Below are positions 53,096 to 64,000 of a stretch of DNA of 64,000 nucleotides, in pieces (position 1 is the first letter of the stretch; every line of letters starts with the position of its first letter). The position numbers and the translations under genes were made by a program. This DNA comes from Candidatus Latescibacterota bacterium (GTDB lineage Bacteria > Latescibacterota > UBA2968 > UBA8231). The notes below the pieces were generated by a model, which was given only the letters and a program-made list of their open reading frames with translations, was not told the origin of the DNA and searched no databases. The stretch is from assembly GCA_965197905.1 (NCBI GenBank), contig CBDAOB010000004.1, forward strand, positions 1,504,001 to 1,568,000, written 5' to 3'.

Positions 53096-53320
53096 GAGAA
53101 AGCTGAAGATACTGCGGCTGGCGCCGCGAACAACCCAGATAGCAGGTGTGTGGACGCCTCCGAGGCACGTTTTGTTGACAGCCGTCCGCGTATTACTTCT
53201 GTATGATGGTTGGCAAACTTGTGGACGGCTGAAGTGACGAATCGGATTAAACACTGCGGAAACATAGCCCTGCTATGGCACCGCTTGGCGACCCATCGGG
53301 TCTGCAGCTCGCTTGTGGGC

Positions 53321-54749
<1,429 letters not shown>

Positions 54750-55944: not shown

Positions 55945-56688
55945 TCAGGGCGCAGCCCAGGAAGCCATATACTCGGGCGCCCACTTGCGCGCCAGATAGA
56001 AGCTCTTCTCCGAGTATAGACCGTGCGGCGGTTTCACTTCGGCGTCGATAAAGATTTCGGCCGCCCCGAAGGTTGGAAACTCCATCACCAGCACCCGATG
56101 CCAGGGCGACTGCCGGTCGATCAGCTGAAAGACCTCCATGCGGCTCAGCTTCTGTTCGCGGGCCACCTGGCGCATCAGGGTTTCATGCTCAGCGTCGCCG
56201 CGCACGGTCGGGTCCAGCGCCTCGGCGCCCGGACGCCAGCGCCCGAATAACAGCAGAATCGCACTGGAGAGATCGGTCCACAACTCCGGGATCTGTCGCG
56301 GGTCGGCGGGCAATGGAACCGCAGGCGGCGCCGGATGGTGAACCCACGTGTCGAAGAAATCGGCTCCCCAGCGGCGCGACAGGAAATATTCGTAATATCC
56401 GTACAACCCGTACGGAGGCGCCATCTCAGCCTCGATCCAGGCCTCGGCGCCTGCCATGGTCGGAAACTCGATCAGCCAGAAGCGCTCCCAGTTCTTGTGA
56501 GGACCCACCAGCTTGAACCCCTCCAGCCGCTTGAGCCCGTGCTCGTGGCCGACCTCGAGCATGAGGTCCACATGTTCCCGCGACGCGGCATCCTGTTCGG
56601 CGGTGGTGAGATGTCCCCAGCTGGGTAGTCTTCCTCCCTTGTAGAGCACGACCACGCTGCTCTTATCGACTTCGAAATCGAAAGCCAC
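55945..56688 (-). CDS. Hypothetical protein made of two tandem homologous alpha/beta domains
   Basis: Internal repeat EH..LM..V..E..L.R.E.F.L......W.R....EFPT...AE..I.AE..PP.GLY....F/Y L.R.W occurs twice. Confidence 0.75.
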   Translation of the reverse strand: MAFDFEVDKSSVVVLYKGGRLPSWGHLTTAEQDAASREHVDLMLEVGHEHGLKRLEGFKLVGPHKNWERFWLIEFPTMAGAEAWIEAEMAPPYGLYGYYEYFLSRRWGADFFDTWVHHPAPPAVPLPADPRQIPELWTDLSSAILLLFGRWRPGAEALDPTVRGDAEHETLMRQVAREQKLSRMEVFQLIDRQSPWHRVLVMEFPTFGAAEIFIDAEVKPPHGLYSEKSFYLARKWAPEYMASWAAP

Positions 56689-56824
56689 GCTAACTCCTAG
56701 TATTCGGGTTCGCTAAATCTCGACGCTGCTGAAACGCGGCTATATACTATCAAGTCGTACCCGCCCGGCAACCGCGGTGGCTATAGCGTTGTCACCTCAC
56801 TTCCCACGAAGAAGAGAGAGACCG

Positions 56825-57658
56825 ATGTCTGAAATCGTTGATTCGACGCACCGAATGGACGGGTCCGTCGCCGTAGTAACCGGTGCCGCCCAAGGGCTCG
56901 GTCTGGCGATGGTGGAGCAGCTCGCACAGAGCGGCGCGACGGTGTTGATCGCCGATCTGCAGCTAGAGAAGGCCGAAGCCGAAGCGGAAGCCCTGAACGC
57001 CCGCGGAATGCAGGTCAAAGCAGCAACCCTAGATGTCACCGACAGTGCTGCGGTGGATGAGCTCTTCGACCGCGTGCGCGCCGAAGCAGGAAGCGTGGAC
57101 ATCCTGGTAAACAACGCCGGGGTGGGCCAGGAGGTCGGACCGATTGTCGAAACCAGCGATCGCGAGTGGGACCGCGTCATGGGACCCACGCTCACGGGCG
57201 CGTTCTACTGCTGCCGTGCTGCTGGACGCCACATGGAGGAGCAGGAGTCGGGGACCATCGTCAATATCTCCTCCATAAACGGACAGGCGCCGGCAGCCTT
57301 GGTGGCGGCCTACAACGTGGCCAAGGCCGGCATCATAAGCCTGACCAAGACTATGGCGCTGGAGATGGCAGCCTATGGCGTCCGCGTCAACGCCGTCTGT
57401 CCCGGGCCGGTCTACACCGAATTCAACCGCCGGAACATGGCCCAGCGCAGCGTCACCCTGAAAGTCAGCGAGGAAGAGATGATCGAGCGCGTGCGCGCTT
57501 CTATACCTTTGGGACGCTGGGGGGAGCCGGTGGATATCGCTCGCGGCGTCGCTTTTCTCTGCAGCCCGGCGGCTTCGTTCATAACCGGAGAGGTGCTTAC
57601 GGTCAGCGGCGGCCTTGTGGGGGTTTCAGCCACGCCTCCTAAAAGGGAAAAGAAATAA
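56825..57658 (+). CDS. SDR-family NAD(P)-dependent oxidoreductase
   Basis: TGAAQGLG, NNAG, SS, YNVAK and NAVCPG. Confidence 0.93.
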   Translation: MSEIVDSTHRMDGSVAVVTGAAQGLGLAMVEQLAQSGATVLIADLQLEKAEAEAEALNARGMQVKAATLDVTDSAAVDELFDRVRAEAGSVDILVNNAGVGQEVGPIVETSDREWDRVMGPTLTGAFYCCRAAGRHMEEQESGTIVNISSINGQAPAALVAAYNVAKAGIISLTKTMALEMAAYGVRVNAVCPGPVYTEFNRRNMAQRSVTLKVSEEEMIERVRASIPLGRWGEPVDIARGVAFLCSPAASFITGEVLTVSGGLVGVSATPPKREKK

Positions 57659-57663
57659 CGCCG

Positions 57664-58632
57664 ATGAAATCGCGGGTTCTCATAACCGAGCATATCTCCG
57701 GCGCCGGCATCGACCTGCTTTCCTCCGAGTGCGAATGTTTGATTCCGTGGCAAGAGGCCAGCTTTTCTTCGGACGATCAGATGCGCAGTGTGCTCGGCGA
57801 GGTTGATGCGGTACTGGTCCGGCTCTTTGCGGTGGACGCTTGCGATTTGGAGCGGGCCGCGCGCCTCAAGGTCATCGGGAAACACGGCGTCGGTGTAGAC
57901 AACATCGATTGCGGAGCGGCGACCCAACACGGCGTAGCCGTGGTCAATACCCCGGTTGCCAACAGCAACGCCGTCGCCGAACATGCCATCACCTCCATGT
58001 TGGCCCTGGCACGGCAGATCGATCATATGAGTCGCGAGATGCGCGCGGGAAGATTCGACGTGCGCAACGACATAAGGGGGATGGAGGTAGCCGACAGGAG
58101 TCTGGGTGTAGTCGGGCTCGGTCGCGTCGGGGCTCGCGTTGCGGAAATCGCCGCGCTAGGGTTTGGCATGAAGGTGTATGCCTATGACCCCTTGGTCCCT
58201 GATTATTCGGGACCGGCGACCCAGCTAACCACCGTCGCGGAGCTTCTTCCCCGCGTCGACTTCCTCACCTTGCACGTACCACTCACCCCCGAAACCAAGG
58301 ATCTGATCAATTCCGCGAGTATCGGTCAGCTGAAACCGGGCTGCCAGATCATAAACACAGCCCGGGGAGGCGTGGTGAATGAGGTTGACCTGGCGCGGGC
58401 CCTCAAGGGAGGAGCGCTGGCGGGAGCGGCGATTGACGTTTTTGAAGACGAACCACTGCCGCAAGGTCACCCCTTATTCGCGGCACCGAACTGCCTGCTA
58501 ACCCCCCACATCGCCGGCCTCACGGCCGAGTCGATGGATCGTATGGCCACCCACTCGGCCCAGGGGGTTCTGGATGTTCTCAACGGACGCCGGCCCCGGC
58601 ATCTGGTTAACCCGGAGGTGATGTCCGACTGA
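57664..58632 (+). CDS. D-isomer-specific 2-hydroxyacid dehydrogenase (PGDH-like, no ACT domain)
   Basis: GVGVDNID, GLGRVG, NTARG, DVF..EP and TPHIAG. Confidence 0.92.
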   Translation: MKSRVLITEHISGAGIDLLSSECECLIPWQEASFSSDDQMRSVLGEVDAVLVRLFAVDACDLERAARLKVIGKHGVGVDNIDCGAATQHGVAVVNTPVANSNAVAEHAITSMLALARQIDHMSREMRAGRFDVRNDIRGMEVADRSLGVVGLGRVGARVAEIAALGFGMKVYAYDPLVPDYSGPATQLTTVAELLPRVDFLTLHVPLTPETKDLINSASIGQLKPGCQIINTARGGVVNEVDLARALKGGALAGAAIDVFEDEPLPQGHPLFAAPNCLLTPHIAGLTAESMDRMATHSAQGVLDVLNGRRPRHLVNPEVMSD

Positions 58633-58696
58633 TGGCAAGCGACGAATCATTGGTTGGTTGGCTGCCCGCCACCCACTGAATTAGAGGAGGGAATCG

Positions 58697-59260
58697 ATGT
58701 CACACAGCGAAATCGTAGCACAGATCGTCGAGCTCTTTGCGAAGAAAGGGAGTTCCAACTACGGGGGGGAAGCCGTCAGTCAACTCGAGCATGCGCTGCA
58801 GACCGCCGCCCAAGCCCGCGACGCGGGTTCCTCGTCGAGGCTGGTGTGCGCGGCGTTGCTTCACGATGTGGGCCACCTGGTCGAAGACGAAACGGACGCG
58901 GGTCGCGATCCGAGCCTGCTCGACGACCGCCACGAAGACAAGGGATCGCAGTGGCTGATCGACCATTTCAGTCCCGAAGTCAGCGATCCGGTTCGACTGC
59001 ATGTAGCCGCCAAGCGGTACCTTTGCACCGTGGATGCGGACTATCTGGATTGCCTGTCTCCGGCGTCGCTGCAGAGCTTGCGCGAACAGGGCGGCAAGAT
59101 GTCCGCCGCGGAAATCGCCGAGTTCGAGTCCGAGCCGAACCGCGATGCCGCCGTTTTGGTGCGCAAGTGGGACGACAACGGCAAAACGCCAGGCCGTTCC
59201 ACTCCAACCATCTCCGACTTCGTCCCCGATCTGGAAGCGGCGGTAGCAGCGGGGCACTGA
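58697..59260 (+). CDS. phnZ: PhnZ/TmpB-type HD-domain diiron oxygenase (C-P bond cleavage)
   Basis: GAGGAGG RBS; YGGE.VSQLEH, LLHDVGH, RHE, HV.AKRYL, LS.AS..SL..QGG and R.WDD..K. Confidence 0.85.
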   Translation: MSHSEIVAQIVELFAKKGSSNYGGEAVSQLEHALQTAAQARDAGSSSRLVCAALLHDVGHLVEDETDAGRDPSLLDDRHEDKGSQWLIDHFSPEVSDPVRLHVAAKRYLCTVDADYLDCLSPASLQSLREQGGKMSAAEIAEFESEPNRDAAVLVRKWDDNGKTPGRSTPTISDFVPDLEAAVAAGH

Positions 59261-59307
59261 GCTTGACAACGACCGCATGCAGAGAGTCGGTCCTCTTGAC
59301 CAGCGGC

Positions 59308-61506
59308 ATGCCAGGCAAGGCCCAGCTGCATCACAAATGGGACTTGGGGGAGATCGAACAGAATCGCCGCTACGGTAAGGCGAGTCTCGATCTGTCTACC
59401 GTGCCGGTGGTTGCCGGCGAGCCAGCCAAGATCGGATTCAGGTTCGAAGCCGGCGAGACGACGATCCCCGTCGGCGGCAGGATCCGGTTCGCCTGGCGGT
59501 GGCCGTTCGACTGGGACATCCCGAGGATCCACAGCACGGCTCTACCTCCGTCCACGAGCGTCGAGGCAGCCTTCGAACCCAAAGGCGACCTCGACGCTTG
59601 GAACCATCACATCGAGCTGAAAGTAACCTCCGGGGCCCTGAATCGAGGCGACGTCGCCGCGTTCGAATGCGGCGACGAGCACGGTTGGGGTGCGCCGACT
59701 TTCTCGACGCCGGCGGCCGGATTCCGAATAGCGATCGATCCGGACGGCAGCGACCACTGGATGCAGCTGGTCGACCCGCCCGGCTTCGTCATCGAGGCTG
59801 GAAAACCGGTGGAGCTGATGGTGGAGTCCCATAGCGGCTGTGGGTTAGGTGAAGCGGTGGAGGTTGCCGTCCGCGCCGTGGATCTCTGGGGCAATGCCGG
59901 ATCGCTGCCGACCCCTCCCGAGTTGGTGTCGGCCGCCGGCATGGAGGCGAAGGAGTTGGAGCCGGTCGCCGAAGGTCGCGTATTTCGGTTCGCGGTGAAA
60001 TGGTCTGCGCCTGGTGTATATCGTGTGCGCGCGCGCGTCGCCGGAACCGATCTCGTAGCAGAGAGCAATCCCGTCCAGATCCGCGACAGTGCGGTCCACC
60101 GAATCTTTTGGGGAGATCTGCATGGCGGGCAGACCGGGATTGGGTGCGGAGCCGGCTCTTTGGAGGAACAGTTCGTTTTTGCTCGCGACGTGGCGCGCCT
60201 GCAGTTCACCAGCCAGCAGGCGAACGACCATTACATCCCGCTGCCTGTCTGGAACCACGTGCGCGAGGTCTCCCATGCCTTCGACGACCCGGGGCGATTC
60301 ACCTGCTTTCTCGGGTGCGAATGGAGCCCGTTCACCGTGGACGGCGGCGACCGAAACGTGATCTATCGCAACGATGAGTCGCGCTTGCGACGCTCGGACC
60401 GATTCTACACCGAGGAGGTGCCCGATCCCGAACCGGACCTGAAGCGGGCCCCCGAATTCCTCGCCACCATGCGAGAGGAGGAGGTGCTGCTCAACCTGCA
60501 CGTGGGGGGCCGGCCGACTAACCTCGATTATCACGAGCCGAAGATCGAGCCCCTTTTCGAGATACATTCTACCCACGGCACCTCGGAGTGGTTCGTTGAA
60601 GACGCCCTAGACCGCGGATACCGCGTCGGCATAACCGGCGGTGCCGACGGCGTCATGGGGCGGCCGGGCGCCGACCGGCCCGGCCGCAGGGTGTCCCGCA
60701 ACGTGCGCAGCGGCCTGACAGCCGTTTTCGCGGAAGACCTGAGTCGCGAGTCTTTATGGGAGGCGTTTCACGCCCGGCGTTGTTACGCCACCACCGGCCA
60801 GCGCATCCTCCTATGGGTGGAGGTCGACGGGCATGTCATGGGTGAAACCTACCAGACCGACGAGTCCCCCGAGATCGCGATCCAGGTGGAGGGGACAGCG
60901 GCAATCGAGCGCGTCGACCTGCTCCGCGGCACAACTGTCTTGAACAGCTGGCCCGTCGCCGAACGCGCCGTAGATCTGACCCGAATCCTTTGGGGGGGCA
61001 CGGAGAAATGCGGTACGGCGGGGGATCAGAAGGTGGTCTGGGATGGCAGACTGCGCGCCGATGGAGGGAAGATCTCGCGGATTCAACCCATCGGGATTCA
61101 AAGCGGAACGGATCAAGTCCGCCAGACCGGCGCGCAGCAGATATCGTGGTCCAGCGCCACGGCGGGAAACGACATGGGCGTAATCTGCCATCTAGAAGGG
61201 GACGAAGGGACCCGCTTTGGGTTCGAAACGGACCCGTGTAGGTTCGATTTTACTATTGCTCAAACGGAGCTTGAAGCGTGGCGCGTCGACGCCGGCGGCG
61301 CCAGCAGGTTTGTCGAAGTGGGTCCGGCACCGTCCGCGGATGGGCCCTCCGGCGTCGAGCTATCCTTTCGCGACGAGGAACCGCTGGGCGGGGAAACGCC
61401 GTACTGGGTACGCGTCGTACAGGTGGACCGCGCTCGCGCCTGGAGCAGTCCGGTCAATGTGATCAGACCGCGATCTGCGGCGCGTCGGACGAACCCGGAT
61501 GGCTGA
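59308..61506 (+). CDS. DUF3604-like PHP-fold metallohydrolase with N-terminal beta-sandwich domains (start 59263-59308)
   Basis: WGDLHG, NDH, GCEWS, GGDRNV, EIHSTHG, RRCYATTG and YWVRV.Q.D...AWSSP. Confidence 0.8.
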   Translation: MPGKAQLHHKWDLGEIEQNRRYGKASLDLSTVPVVAGEPAKIGFRFEAGETTIPVGGRIRFAWRWPFDWDIPRIHSTALPPSTSVEAAFEPKGDLDAWNHHIELKVTSGALNRGDVAAFECGDEHGWGAPTFSTPAAGFRIAIDPDGSDHWMQLVDPPGFVIEAGKPVELMVESHSGCGLGEAVEVAVRAVDLWGNAGSLPTPPELVSAAGMEAKELEPVAEGRVFRFAVKWSAPGVYRVRARVAGTDLVAESNPVQIRDSAVHRIFWGDLHGGQTGIGCGAGSLEEQFVFARDVARLQFTSQQANDHYIPLPVWNHVREVSHAFDDPGRFTCFLGCEWSPFTVDGGDRNVIYRNDESRLRRSDRFYTEEVPDPEPDLKRAPEFLATMREEEVLLNLHVGGRPTNLDYHEPKIEPLFEIHSTHGTSEWFVEDALDRGYRVGITGGADGVMGRPGADRPGRRVSRNVRSGLTAVFAEDLSRESLWEAFHARRCYATTGQRILLWVEVDGHVMGETYQTDESPEIAIQVEGTAAIERVDLLRGTTVLNSWPVAERAVDLTRILWGGTEKCGTAGDQKVVWDGRLRADGGKISRIQPIGIQSGTDQVRQTGAQQISWSSATAGNDMGVICHLEGDEGTRFGFETDPCRFDFTIAQTELEAWRVDAGGASRFVEVGPAPSADGPSGVELSFRDEEPLGGETPYWVRVVQVDRARAWSSPVNVIRPRSAARRTNPDG

Positions 61507-61537
61507 CCCTACACGCGCTAGCCATTGAGGGGTTGCG

Positions 61538-62296
61538 ATGGAGACGCAGAGAGTTGCTGTGGTGACCGGGGGCGCACGGGGCATAGGTCTTGCCATCGCC
61601 CGCAAGCTGGCCGCCCACGGTGACCGCGTGATCGTTGCCGACATTCAAACCGACCTTGGGCGCCAAGCGGCGCAGGGTCTCGACGCACATTTTCACTTCG
61701 TCGACGTCGGCGTCGAGAGTTCGGTTGTGCAATTGGTCAAAGAGGTTGAGAACGAGCACGGAGCGATCGAGGTCTGGGTGAATTCGGCCGGGCTTCTCCA
61801 GGCTCCCCAGCGCACCGAATCGATGCCGATGGAGGAACACGACCGCATATGGGAGATCAACTACCGAGGCACCTATCTCTGCTGTCGCGCGGCGGCTCCG
61901 CGCATGGGCGAACGGGGCAAGGGTGCTATTCTGAACATCGGCTCCACCAACAGCTTTCGCATCATGCCTCTGCCTGCCTACTCCCCCTCTAAAGCTGCCA
62001 TCAAGGCACTGACCGAACTACTGGCGGCCGAGTGGGGGCCGCGAGGGGTGCGGGTGAATACGGTCGCCCCCGGATTCGCCCGCACCCCGGCGTTCCAGGC
62101 GCAGATCGACGCCGGCACGCGGGACGTGCAGAAAATCTCCGACACCACCGCCTTGGGCCGGCTGGTGGAACCGGATGAGGTGGCCGAGACGGCGCTGTTT
62201 CTCTGTTCCGAAAAAGCATCGGCTATCACTGGCGTATGTCTGCCGGTCGATTGCGGCTGGTTGCCGACCCATAGCTATAACGCATTTCCCCGATAA
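61538..62296 (+). CDS. SDR-family oxidoreductase
   Basis: TGGARGIG, NSAG, YSPSK and NTVAPG. Confidence 0.93.
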   Translation: METQRVAVVTGGARGIGLAIARKLAAHGDRVIVADIQTDLGRQAAQGLDAHFHFVDVGVESSVVQLVKEVENEHGAIEVWVNSAGLLQAPQRTESMPMEEHDRIWEINYRGTYLCCRAAAPRMGERGKGAILNIGSTNSFRIMPLPAYSPSKAAIKALTELLAAEWGPRGVRVNTVAPGFARTPAFQAQIDAGTRDVQKISDTTALGRLVEPDEVAETALFLCSEKASAITGVCLPVDCGWLPTHSYNAFPR

Positions 62297-62320
62297 CCGC
62301 GCCAGATCAAATCGAATCCT

Positions 62321-63199
62321 ATGCAGCTGACCGACGAACATCTCGAAACCTTCCACGAACAGGGTTTTGTGGTGGTGGAGAACTTCTACCCCGAAGAAAA
62401 GCGCGCCCGGATCGCCGCAGCGATCCGCGAAACCCACCCTCCGTGGGAGATCATGAAGGATCGAGAACCGGAAAAGCTGTCCCCTCCCGGGTTACTGAAG
62501 GCCCGGTTTCCGTACGAGAATATGCTGTTCAACGAACTCACCATCGACGGCGACCTCATCCACTTCATCCAACGGGTGCTGGAAACGGAGGACATACACT
62601 TTCGCTACGCCCACAACTGGGCGCGCTACCCCGTACCGAACCCGCCTCCCAAGCTGCACATGGACAACAGCAACAACTCGCTCTTGCCCCCCACCGGCGG
62701 CGCGCCCTACGGTCAGATCAGCACCTGGTACTTTCCAGAGGCGGTGGGTGAGGACGAAGCGCCGATGTTAGTCATCCCTAAGCGTTATAGCCGCGATTTG
62801 AGCAAGAAGGTGGTCCTCGCCGTGCCCGCCGGCACGCAGATGATCTTTAGCACCCACATCTGGCATTCGGCAACCTTGTTCAAACGAACCGATTCCCAGC
62901 GTTATTCGGTAACCCGCATCTACGGTCGAGCTGATCATTACTGGGAGGGTGTCGGCTTCATCACCAGTCTTGGAAGAAACGAACATTTCAGGGAGTTTAT
63001 CGGCACCCTGACTGCCCGCCAGCGCGAGGTGTTTAGGTTCCCCCCGGCGGGGCACTCGTTTTACACCCGCGAACACCTCGCCCTGTTGGAAGGCCAGTAC
63101 CCCGGCTGGAACACGAGGCAAGAGTACCTGCCCGGCGAGGAGATCGAACCTCTCGACGATCCCTTTCTCTTCGGCCTCGGTCATGTTCCCGATGAGTAG
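62321..63199 (+). CDS. Phytanoyl-CoA dioxygenase (PhyH) family Fe(II)/2-oxoglutarate dioxygenase
   Basis: LTDE....F.EQGFVVVE, HxD (HMD), VPAG, WHS and distal R. Confidence 0.85.
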   Translation: MQLTDEHLETFHEQGFVVVENFYPEEKRARIAAAIRETHPPWEIMKDREPEKLSPPGLLKARFPYENMLFNELTIDGDLIHFIQRVLETEDIHFRYAHNWARYPVPNPPPKLHMDNSNNSLLPPTGGAPYGQISTWYFPEAVGEDEAPMLVIPKRYSRDLSKKVVLAVPAGTQMIFSTHIWHSATLFKRTDSQRYSVTRIYGRADHYWEGVGFITSLGRNEHFREFIGTLTARQREVFRFPPAGHSFYTREHLALLEGQYPGWNTRQEYLPGEEIEPLDDPFLFGLGHVPDE

Positions 63200-64000
63200 A
63201 CCGCTGGTCACCCCTCTAGTTGTGGACGCGCATGGCCACACCCTGGACCTTGCGTTTGAAGCGGGTGTGGATCTCCACAAGGATCTGCGGGGGTTGACCG
63301 ATCTTCCCTTGATGCGTAGCGGAGGAGTGACGGCACAACTCACGGCCTGCTGGATACCCGATGCGGCCATTGGCGGACCCCATGCTACCCGAGAACCGTT
63401 GCAGAAGGCTCTGCGAATGGTGGACTACCTGCTCCGTCAGCTGGAGCAGGAAGCGGGACATCATTTTGTCGTGGCAACCTGTGCGGAAGACATCCGCACG
63501 GCGAAGGCGAACGGCAAGATTGCGTTTATTCTCGGCTTGGAGGGGGGCGACGCGCTCAAAGGCGATCTGGGCTTGTTGCGCACCTTTTACAGACTCGGTC
63601 TGCGCCACCTAGGTCTGGTCCATGAAGGGCGGAATGCGTTGGGAACCGCGACCCAAGTATGGGACGGGCCGCACATGCGGTTGTACGATGACAAGGTCGA
63701 CCCGAGCGGAGGGCTGACGCCGGACGGGAAAGCGTTTGTGCGCGAAATGAATCACCTCGGAATCATGGTGGACGTTACGCACATGGAAGAAACGACCTTC
63801 TGGGATGCCCTGGACATCGCCAAGGCCCCGGTTATCGCAACCCATGGAAACGCGCGATCCTTGCGCGACACCCCCCGCAATCTTACCGATGACCAGATAC
63901 GCGCGATTGCCTCGACGGGCGGAATCGTGTGTCCCAGTCCAACGCCGCTGGGACCGGGAGGTGAAAAACCCGGCCTCGAGATGGTGCTGGACCATATCGA
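63192..64000 (+). CDS. Membrane dipeptidase (peptidase M19), 3'-truncated; absent from the ORF track
   Basis: Manual translation: MSRPLVTPLVVDAHGHT...DLP.MR.GGV...LEGGD...GGLT..GK..V.EMN.LG..VDVTH...ATHGNAR...RNLTDDQ..AIA..GG...DHI. Confidence 0.88.
   Translation, partial: MSRPLVTPLVVDAHGHTLDLAFEAGVDLHKDLRGLTDLPLMRSGGVTAQLTACWIPDAAIGGPHATREPLQKALRMVDYLLRQLEQEAGHHFVVATCAEDIRTAKANGKIAFILGLEGGDALKGDLGLLRTFYRLGLRHLGLVHEGRNALGTATQVWDGPHMRLYDDKVDPSGGLTPDGKAFVREMNHLGIMVDVTHMEETTFWDALDIAKAPVIATHGNARSLRDTPRNLTDDQIRAIASTGGIVCPSPTPLGPGGEKPGLEMVLDHI

Follow-up and report, generated by a model that had tools for sequence, protein, structure and literature searches.

A PhnZ-type diiron oxygenase gene within a genus-limited string of catabolic genes of a Latescibacterota bacterium

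Background

The oxidative phnY*Z and tmpAB pathways each combine, in a single gene run, an Fe(II)/2-oxoglutarate (Fe/2OG) oxygenase with an HD-domain oxygenase, the latter represented by PhnZ (HF130_AEPn_1; PDB entries 4mlm and 4n6w) and by TmpB from Leisingera caerulea (6npa). Phosphonate clusters of the phnWX and phnWAY types that contain phnZ without phnY* are documented in PMC8154272 (Table 1), and PMC12366243 describes an NAD-dependent racemase of 1-hydroxy-2-aminoethylphosphonate (HAEP), PbfF, the gene for which always accompanies pbfA, in alphaproteobacterial clusters. Here we analyze a phnZ-like gene of a Candidatus Latescibacterota bacterium (genome G000, 6.69 Mb, 91% complete). The window, i.e., the entire stretch of DNA analyzed, comprises 64,000 nucleotides (nt) of contig CBDAOB010000004.1 (G000:C4:1504001-1568000), and the gene lies near its end in a run with genes for two short-chain dehydrogenases (SDR1 and SDR2), a hydroxyacid dehydrogenase, a DUF3604 protein, a PhyH-like oxygenase and a dipeptidase (Table 1). 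The comparisons draw on a class sample of 132 genomes; G000, G001 and G002 belong to one genus (the latter two 89% and 93% complete), and G004 and G020 to its sister genus.

The original prediction took this run for a candidate oxidative organophosphonate operon around the PhnZ-type enzyme, in which the extra hydrolases and dehydrogenases point to a complex phosphonate. The reading that we favor, with a probability of about 0.7, is that of an orphan PhnZ that acts on ready-made 1-hydroxyphosphonates and is encoded inside a genus-limited mosaic of older catabolic mini-modules. The substrate would be an (R)-1-hydroxyalkylphosphonate available ready-made, with its C-P bond cleaved by the mixed-valent Fe(II)/Fe(III) center of the enzyme together with O2; judging by the chemistry of PhnZ and TmpB, the products would be a carboxylate and phosphate. 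Genome comparison shows the neighbors to be older genes or gene pairs at separate locations, the DUF3604 and PhyH-like genes each occurring singly; in this genus, they would have been collected in a variable zone of about 20 kb behind the existing SDR1 promoter. The genes of the run would probably be co-transcribed and act on different substrates.

The HD-domain oxygenase

The HD protein aligns over its full length with TmpB (6npa, E-value 4e-34) and PhnZ (4mlm, E-value 2e-25). All 16 checked active-site positions of PhnZ/TmpB (ligand, loop and contact positions) are retained, as had been claimed at first for the diiron ligands and the PhnZ motifs. The ligand pattern H...HD...H...H...D is complete (H32, H56, D57, H79, H102 and D159), the YxxE loop is represented by Y22-x-x-E25, and H60, K106, S124, S127 and R156 match H62, K108, S126, T129 and R158 of PhnZ, which we take to be the phosphonate-contact residues. 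Because these positions hardly vary across the 85 aligned homologs, they mark the family rather than the substrate. The definitions of the HD-domain diiron and YxxE motifs are those of PMC8177086.

The match of the HD protein to the TIGR03276 profile (211.6 bits) falls slightly under the cut-off of 214.6, with 215.5 bits for the G001 ortholog and 204.8 for that of G002; the scores with the TmpB and GmPhnZ1 equivalog models (NF049941 and NF052439; cut-off 300 bits) are 170.2 and 172.1, respectively. Among the best 120 of 6751 HD homologs, six are 70-93% identical to the protein and the remainder at most 57%. In a quick IQ-TREE phylogeny with Shimodaira-Hasegawa-like approximate likelihood ratio test (SH-aLRT) support only and without the PDB references, the protein belongs to a 21-row clade (SH-aLRT 100), the named members of which come from Verrucomicrobia, Lentisphaeria and Phycisphaeraceae (the Planctomycetes-Verrucomicrobia-Chlamydiae, or PVC, group); no member of this clade is characterized among the proteins compared. 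The phylogeny, which had been suggested as a check, sets the protein apart from both the PhnY*-linked and the TmpA-linked copies. Judged by its residues and alignments, the assignment of the HD protein as a PhnZ/TmpB-type diiron oxygenase is sound. Residue E25, kept in this protein, is replaced in five of the seven proteins encoded beside methylphosphonate-hydroxylase-like genes; its retention is a weak pointer to HAEP as the likeliest substrate, in which case glycine would be the product.

Partners of phnZ and other phosphonate genes

Among 45 phnZ loci, PhnY*-like neighbors are present at 7 and TmpA-like neighbors at 3, and the other 35 have neither within 3 kb, so that partnerless phnZ is the dominant arrangement among the class loci examined; for 26 of these 35 loci, the sequence extends 3 kb or more to either side. 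At 7 of 42 loci (L035, L036, L037, L039, L040, L047 and L259), drawn from several genera, phnZ directly precedes or overlaps mnmA, a tRNA-modification gene, which shows that tight coupling of phnZ to an unrelated gene is common. Newly formed operons often join unrelated genes (PMC1480536).

A second phnZ of G000 is adjacent to a TmpA-like gene (394 bits, cut-off 400) and forms with it a tmpAB-like pair (G000:C3:433084-434749, L052:9685-11350) that was not found in G001 or G002. The gene phnA is detected above the cut-off in all three genomes of the genus, in G000 on another contig, and G001 encodes phnD-, phnX- and phnA-like matches together on one other contig. Neither the C-P lyase gene phnJ nor phnW or phnX was found above the cut-off in the 91% complete G000, nor was a phosphonate transporter, and the only PhnD-like protein of this genome passes a putative selenate-binding model. 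Locus L287, in which phnZ accompanies phnX, phnA and an HpnW-type gene, served as a positive control.

Three further arrangements came to light. In G005, at one of the 45 loci (L043:6697-8343), a GmPhnZ1-like phnZ is immediately preceded by a different TauD-family gene (35% identity), and the two form a candidate alternative hydroxylase pair. In another family (L042 and L260-L264), phnZ mostly follows a gene for a major facilitator superfamily transporter, with a haloacid dehalogenase-type (HAD) hydrolase gene next in three cases, a possible import-and-cleave module that includes no hydroxylase. In G000, locus L274 (G000:C2:228459-232196) encodes a putative selenate ATP-binding cassette transporter (TIGR04553, 371 bits), and the gene divergent from it is presumably EgtB/SenA-like.

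The PhyH-like and TfdA-like oxygenases

The PhyH-like protein of the run contains the invariant H113-x-D115...H182 triad and R194, the 2OG-binding arginine, and its structural model (predicted local distance difference test score, pLDDT, 89) adopts a double-stranded beta-helix fold; as a PhyH dioxygenase it is thus upheld by triad and fold, but its Pfam score as a single sequence, 20.1 bits, is below the cut-off of 22. A search against NCBIfam, including the PhnY* and TmpA models, yields no match at E<=0.01. True phnZ partners in relatives score 320-346 bits (NF052437, PhnY*) or 394 bits (NF049936, TmpA), and the nearest structure to the PhyH-like protein is ColD (8xp6, E-value 2e-27; template modeling score 0.76, 21% identity). 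The PhyH-like protein is thus not a PhnY* or TmpA homolog.

PhyH genes abound in G000. At least 151 matches to PF05721 are detected, and our own count among 5831 called genes is 224 PhyH-like genes, 78 SDRs and 20 hydroxyacid dehydrogenases; for a gene drawn at random from this genome, the chance that a PhyH gene is at most four genes away is 20.6%. Where PhyH and SDR paralogs are this numerous, operon-like packing around phnZ reveals little about the substrate.

Past the dipeptidase gene, after 66 nt, the run continues beyond the window, as first noted, with a TfdA/TauD-family dioxygenase gene, followed by the remains of a nitrilase gene and by a pirin gene; a transporter gene, for which inspection of the downstream genes had been suggested, was not found in the run or in this continuation. 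The closest solved relatives of the TfdA-like protein are 2,4-dichlorophenoxyacetate (2,4-D)/aryloxyalkanoate dioxygenases (5bke, E-value 1e-62). In G000, the gene has lost its frame through a deletion of 10 nt by comparison with G002, and the nitrilase gene is called only as a fragment; both genes are whole in G001 and G002. No TfdA-like ortholog was found near phnZ, the closest one on a shared long contig being about 100 kb away.

Conservation of the gene string inside and outside the genus

The string is present in all three genomes of the genus, and so are its surroundings: 84 of the 85 called genes over 86 kb are matched collinearly in the fetched stretch of G002, and 32 of 40 on the G001 contig. 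Because nearly everything around the string is collinear as well, its conservation at the genus level amounts to background synteny.

Outside the genus, the gene order is not conserved, and the genes persist separately. Orthologs of SDR1 (64-86% identity) are found in 55 of the 132 class genomes, DUF3604 at 44% identity or higher in 52, the PhyH-like gene in 35, the dipeptidase in 26, and SDR2 in 6, with 45-48% identity outside the genus. Together, phnZ and DUF3604 occur at 2 of the 77 loci with a PhyH homolog, both from this genus, and the 75 other loci lack phnZ. Among the DUF3604-ortholog loci outside the genus, 40 of 49 were examined, and neither phnZ nor the TfdA-like gene is present at any of the 40; in the reverse direction, no DUF3604, PhyH-like or dipeptidase gene is present at 34 other phnZ loci. 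On 17 near-closed chromosomes, from genomes of one or two contigs chosen by hand, 117 pairs among SDR1, SDR2, DUF3604, the PhyH-like gene, the dipeptidase and any phnZ were scored by linear distance; the smallest distance within a pair is 132 kb, and the smallest to any phnZ is 173 kb. With the order unconserved outside the genus, an outcome named in the original prediction as refuting it, and the genes scattered, the proposal that the neighbors define a complex phosphonate substrate is not supported.

Smaller associations recur. The divergent 247-aa gene and SDR1 are paired also in G004 and G020, so this pairing is older than the cluster; SDR1 is followed by a hydroxyacid dehydrogenase gene in G006 and G011, without phnZ; and the dipeptidase gene is located within about 6 kb of a TfdA-like gene in G004, G020 and G005. 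In the corresponding locus of the sister genus, SDR1 is followed by a different SDR and then by the gene found at window-frame position 77556, so that about 20 kb differ. Several other genera carry these genes at scattered positions, which makes a gain of the run in this genus a simpler reading than its loss in the sister genus.

The cluster was not detected outside the genus in class-wide searches with each gene, in a scan of genome contigs with the PhyH-like protein, or in plasmid and phage collections. A metagenome scan with SDR2 gave six loci, of which five were inspected and showed unrelated neighbors, several on contigs of 1-3 kb; two of the 15 plasmid loci with SDR2 were inspected, and both are beside hydantoinase/oxoprolinase genes. 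In a 401-genome sample of another phylum, only the center genome matched at E<=1e-40; its phnZ and that of a relative, both outside the tree, are behind an aldo-keto reductase gene and a xylose-isomerase-like gene. Literature searches, which left most subscription papers uncovered, found no paper describing this gene string.

Layout of the run and its other genes

The seven co-oriented open reading frames (ORFs) are all present as predicted, separated by gaps of 5, 64, 47, 31 and 24 nt and one overlap (Table 1). Packing of this kind is operon-like, given that only 41 of 3441 runs in G000 (our own gene caller) comprise at least seven co-oriented genes with gaps of at most 70 nt, and co-transcription appears likely. 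The gene order is not an assembly artifact, as contigs from two further public runs show the same arrangement across the stretch; one of these covers 58408-61894. The GC content of the cluster, overall and at third codon positions, equals that of the genome, with no sign of recent transfer. Thus, of the oxidative phosphonate operon first proposed, the PhnZ-type enzyme and the operon-like packing stand, but the linkage does not rise above background synteny.

Table 1. Features of the locus, in window coordinates except where another frame is named
Feature	Position	Strand	Basis or remark
Divergent 247-aa gene	55945..56688	-	no Pfam or NCBIfam match
Sigma-70-like promoter candidate, TCGACG-N17-TATACT	56720..56751	+	motif scan, five-genome alignment
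SDR1, classical short-chain dehydrogenase	56825..57658	+	TGxxxGxG, NNAG, YxxxK
D-2-hydroxyacid dehydrogenase	57664..58632	+	PF02826/PF00389
Predicted PhnZ/TmpB-type HD-domain diiron oxygenase	58697..59260	+	sequence alignment, residues
DUF3604 protein	59308..61506	+	Pfam; ATG start, in-frame TTG at 59263
SDR2	61538..62296	+	profile match; close orthologs only inside the genus
PhyH-type Fe(II)/2-oxoglutarate dioxygenase, ColD-like subfamily	62321..63199	+	triad, fold
M19 (renal-dipeptidase-family) dipeptidase, 341 aa	63183 to window-frame 64208	+	last 208 nt past the window
TfdA/TauD-family dioxygenase, broken in G000	window-frame 64275-65125; L001:8276-9126	+	outside the window
Nitrilase remains	L001:9177-9900 (with TfdA-like gene, window-frame 64275-65900)		after the TfdA-like gene; outside the window

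Both SDRs, the hydroxyacid dehydrogenase and the dipeptidase retain their catalytic motifs; no informative solved relative was found for any of the four, the nearest one to the hydroxyacid dehydrogenase being McyI. In G002, the gene of this dehydrogenase is frameshifted by a deletion of about 58 nt and phnZ is intact. The breaks in genes of the run, seen in two of the three genomes of the genus, could be assembly errors, but they are unlike homopolymer slips.

The DUF3604 protein (PF12228, 53.8 bits against a cut-off of 20.4) retains invariant His, Asp and Glu residues, and its model (pLDDT 91.5) consists of beta-sandwich domains around a PHP-like metal barrel. The best enzyme-like fold match is 3e38 (E-value 1.4e-7), which covers only part of the model, and a sequence search found no solved relative. 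A preprint states that no activity has been reported for this family. Nine annotated plasmid loci with DUF3604 (of 59 records) mostly include a regulator and a transporter; none of the nine names a phn gene, and sulfur-related neighbors are present in four (L288, L291, L297 and L298: TauE/SafE twice, SfnB, SoxC). These plasmid homologs, 26-33% identical to the DUF3604 protein of the run, thus occur in regulator-transporter-hydrolase cassettes, a lead towards organosulfur substrates.

The upstream 247-aa protein contains an internal repeat and has orthologs in 49 of the 132 class genomes; its atlas neighbors are hypothetical proteins, and DUF6616 and Darcynin are leads only. In the promoter candidate, the -10 block TATACTATC does not vary among five genomes of the genus and its sister genus, and two of these genomes lack the cluster; the motif scan found one site against 2.3 expected by chance and is weak alone. 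Across the five upstream regions, invariance is limited to this block and a few scattered bases, with no dedicated Pho-box search made. Further upstream, at 53210-54749 of the window, a gene is apparently split into two ORFs, with a single 512-aa ORF as its G002 counterpart (L033:4172-5710); we take it to be sugar-dehydrogenase-like with a C-terminal secretion-type tail.

Alternative explanations

Several points weigh against an orphan PhnZ within a mosaic of older modules. The tight packing of the run extends to all three genomes of the genus, with 68-86% protein identity. In G000, 7-gene windows with a PhyH gene and at least two dehydrogenase genes are uncommon (21 of 5801 overlapping windows). 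Neither G001 nor G002 (89% and 93% complete) yielded any phnZ besides that of the run, or any PhnY*- or TmpA-like gene; this absence of a known hydroxylase leaves room for a new partner. Moreover, phnZ and SDR2 could have arrived together, as both lack close orthologs in the class (53% and 48% identity at best). The neighborhood control is indirect, given that other genera have phnZ copies from different clades; the phnZ loci compared left out the nearest clade members (P0248-P0260 and P0264), and some are on short contigs.

The alternative that fares best against the data, although we consider it unlikely, is an oxidative phosphonate pathway specific to this genus, put together recently around a new hydroxylase, as an operon in mid-formation. 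DUF3604 and the dipeptidase would unmask a phosphonate ester or peptide, a ColD-like or TfdA-like enzyme, of types not known to act on phosphonates, would hydroxylate C1, taking the place of PhnY*/TmpA for this distinct PhnZ clade, and PhnZ would then cleave the C-P bond. Two Fe/2OG oxygenases are indeed encoded in the same run, and the tight packing and the lack of a known hydroxylase in G001 and G002 agree with such a pathway, as do the TauD-family gene directly before phnZ at L043 and the presence of phnA throughout the genus, which thus handles phosphonates. However, in other genera the orthologs of both oxygenases, DUF3604 and the dipeptidase are far from phnZ, the TfdA-like gene is broken in G000, and no phn gene is named at the plasmid DUF3604 loci; the run also lacks a transporter, with the sole PhnD-like protein of G000 being putatively selenate-binding and the phnD-, phnX- and phnA-like genes of G001 residing on another contig. 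If correct, this pathway would provide a third hydroxylase class for oxidative C-P cleavage and the first function for DUF3604.

A second possibility, which appears quite improbable, is a mini-module in which the hydroxyacid dehydrogenase, alone or together with an SDR, racemizes an (S)-1-hydroxyphosphonate, or oxidizes and re-reduces it, and so feeds the (R)-specific PhnZ in the manner of PbfF. The dehydrogenase gene is directly upstream of phnZ in all three genomes of the genus and belongs to pfam02826, the family given for PbfF in PMC12366243. Thus, the redox inversion of the stereocenter included in the original prediction has a precedent, but nothing ties the dehydrogenase of this run to it: the SDR1-dehydrogenase pair occurs without phnZ in G006 and G011, the gene is disrupted in G002 next to an intact phnZ, the nearest solved relative is McyI, and the genome encodes 20 members of this family. 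In addition, no aminotransferase-type gene is present in the run, so that pbfA, the constant companion of known pbfF, is missing. A plasmid search bearing on orthology to PbfF returned no match at E<=1e-50.

There is likewise little chance that a coherent theme other than phosphonates (catabolism of organosulfur compounds, ethers or nitriles by the TfdA-like, DUF3604 and nitrilase proteins) unites the run, with phnZ as an inserted passenger: the sulfur-related plasmid neighbors, the affinity of the TfdA-like protein to aryloxyalkanoate dioxygenases and its gene's proximity to the dipeptidase gene in three genomes are in its favor, but the plasmid DUF3604 homologs are distant, the non-phnZ genes are scattered in other genera, and the TfdA-like gene is missing from all 40 DUF3604-ortholog loci.

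Comparison with described systems

Compared with PhnZ and TmpB, the HD protein shares the diiron motif, the YxxE loop and the K, S and R positions but belongs to a clade of its own with PVC-group proteins, and neither phnY* nor tmpA adjoins its gene. As in the phnY*Z and tmpAB pathways, an Fe/2OG oxygenase and an HD oxygenase are encoded in one run; however, the PhyH-like gene is three genes away from phnZ and its homologs are not linked to phnZ. PbfF (PMC12366243) and the dehydrogenase encoded before phnZ share the family (PF02826). The closest profile and fold to the PhyH-like protein are those of ColD (8xp6 and 8xpf), an Fe/2OG oxygenase solved with collinodins, on which no paper was found; at 21% identity, its substrate is not transferable. 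Poribacteria, as portrayed in PMC3909097, resemble G000 in their large and diverse PhyH repertoire with few assignable members but represent a different phylum and possess a true phnY-phnZ pair, unlike this locus. Finally, the ancillary phnZ genes of PMC8154272 are set among phnW, phnX, phnA or transporter neighbors, which the run described here lacks, and share with it a PhnZ without a hydroxylase, interpreted there as a scavenger of R-HAEP.

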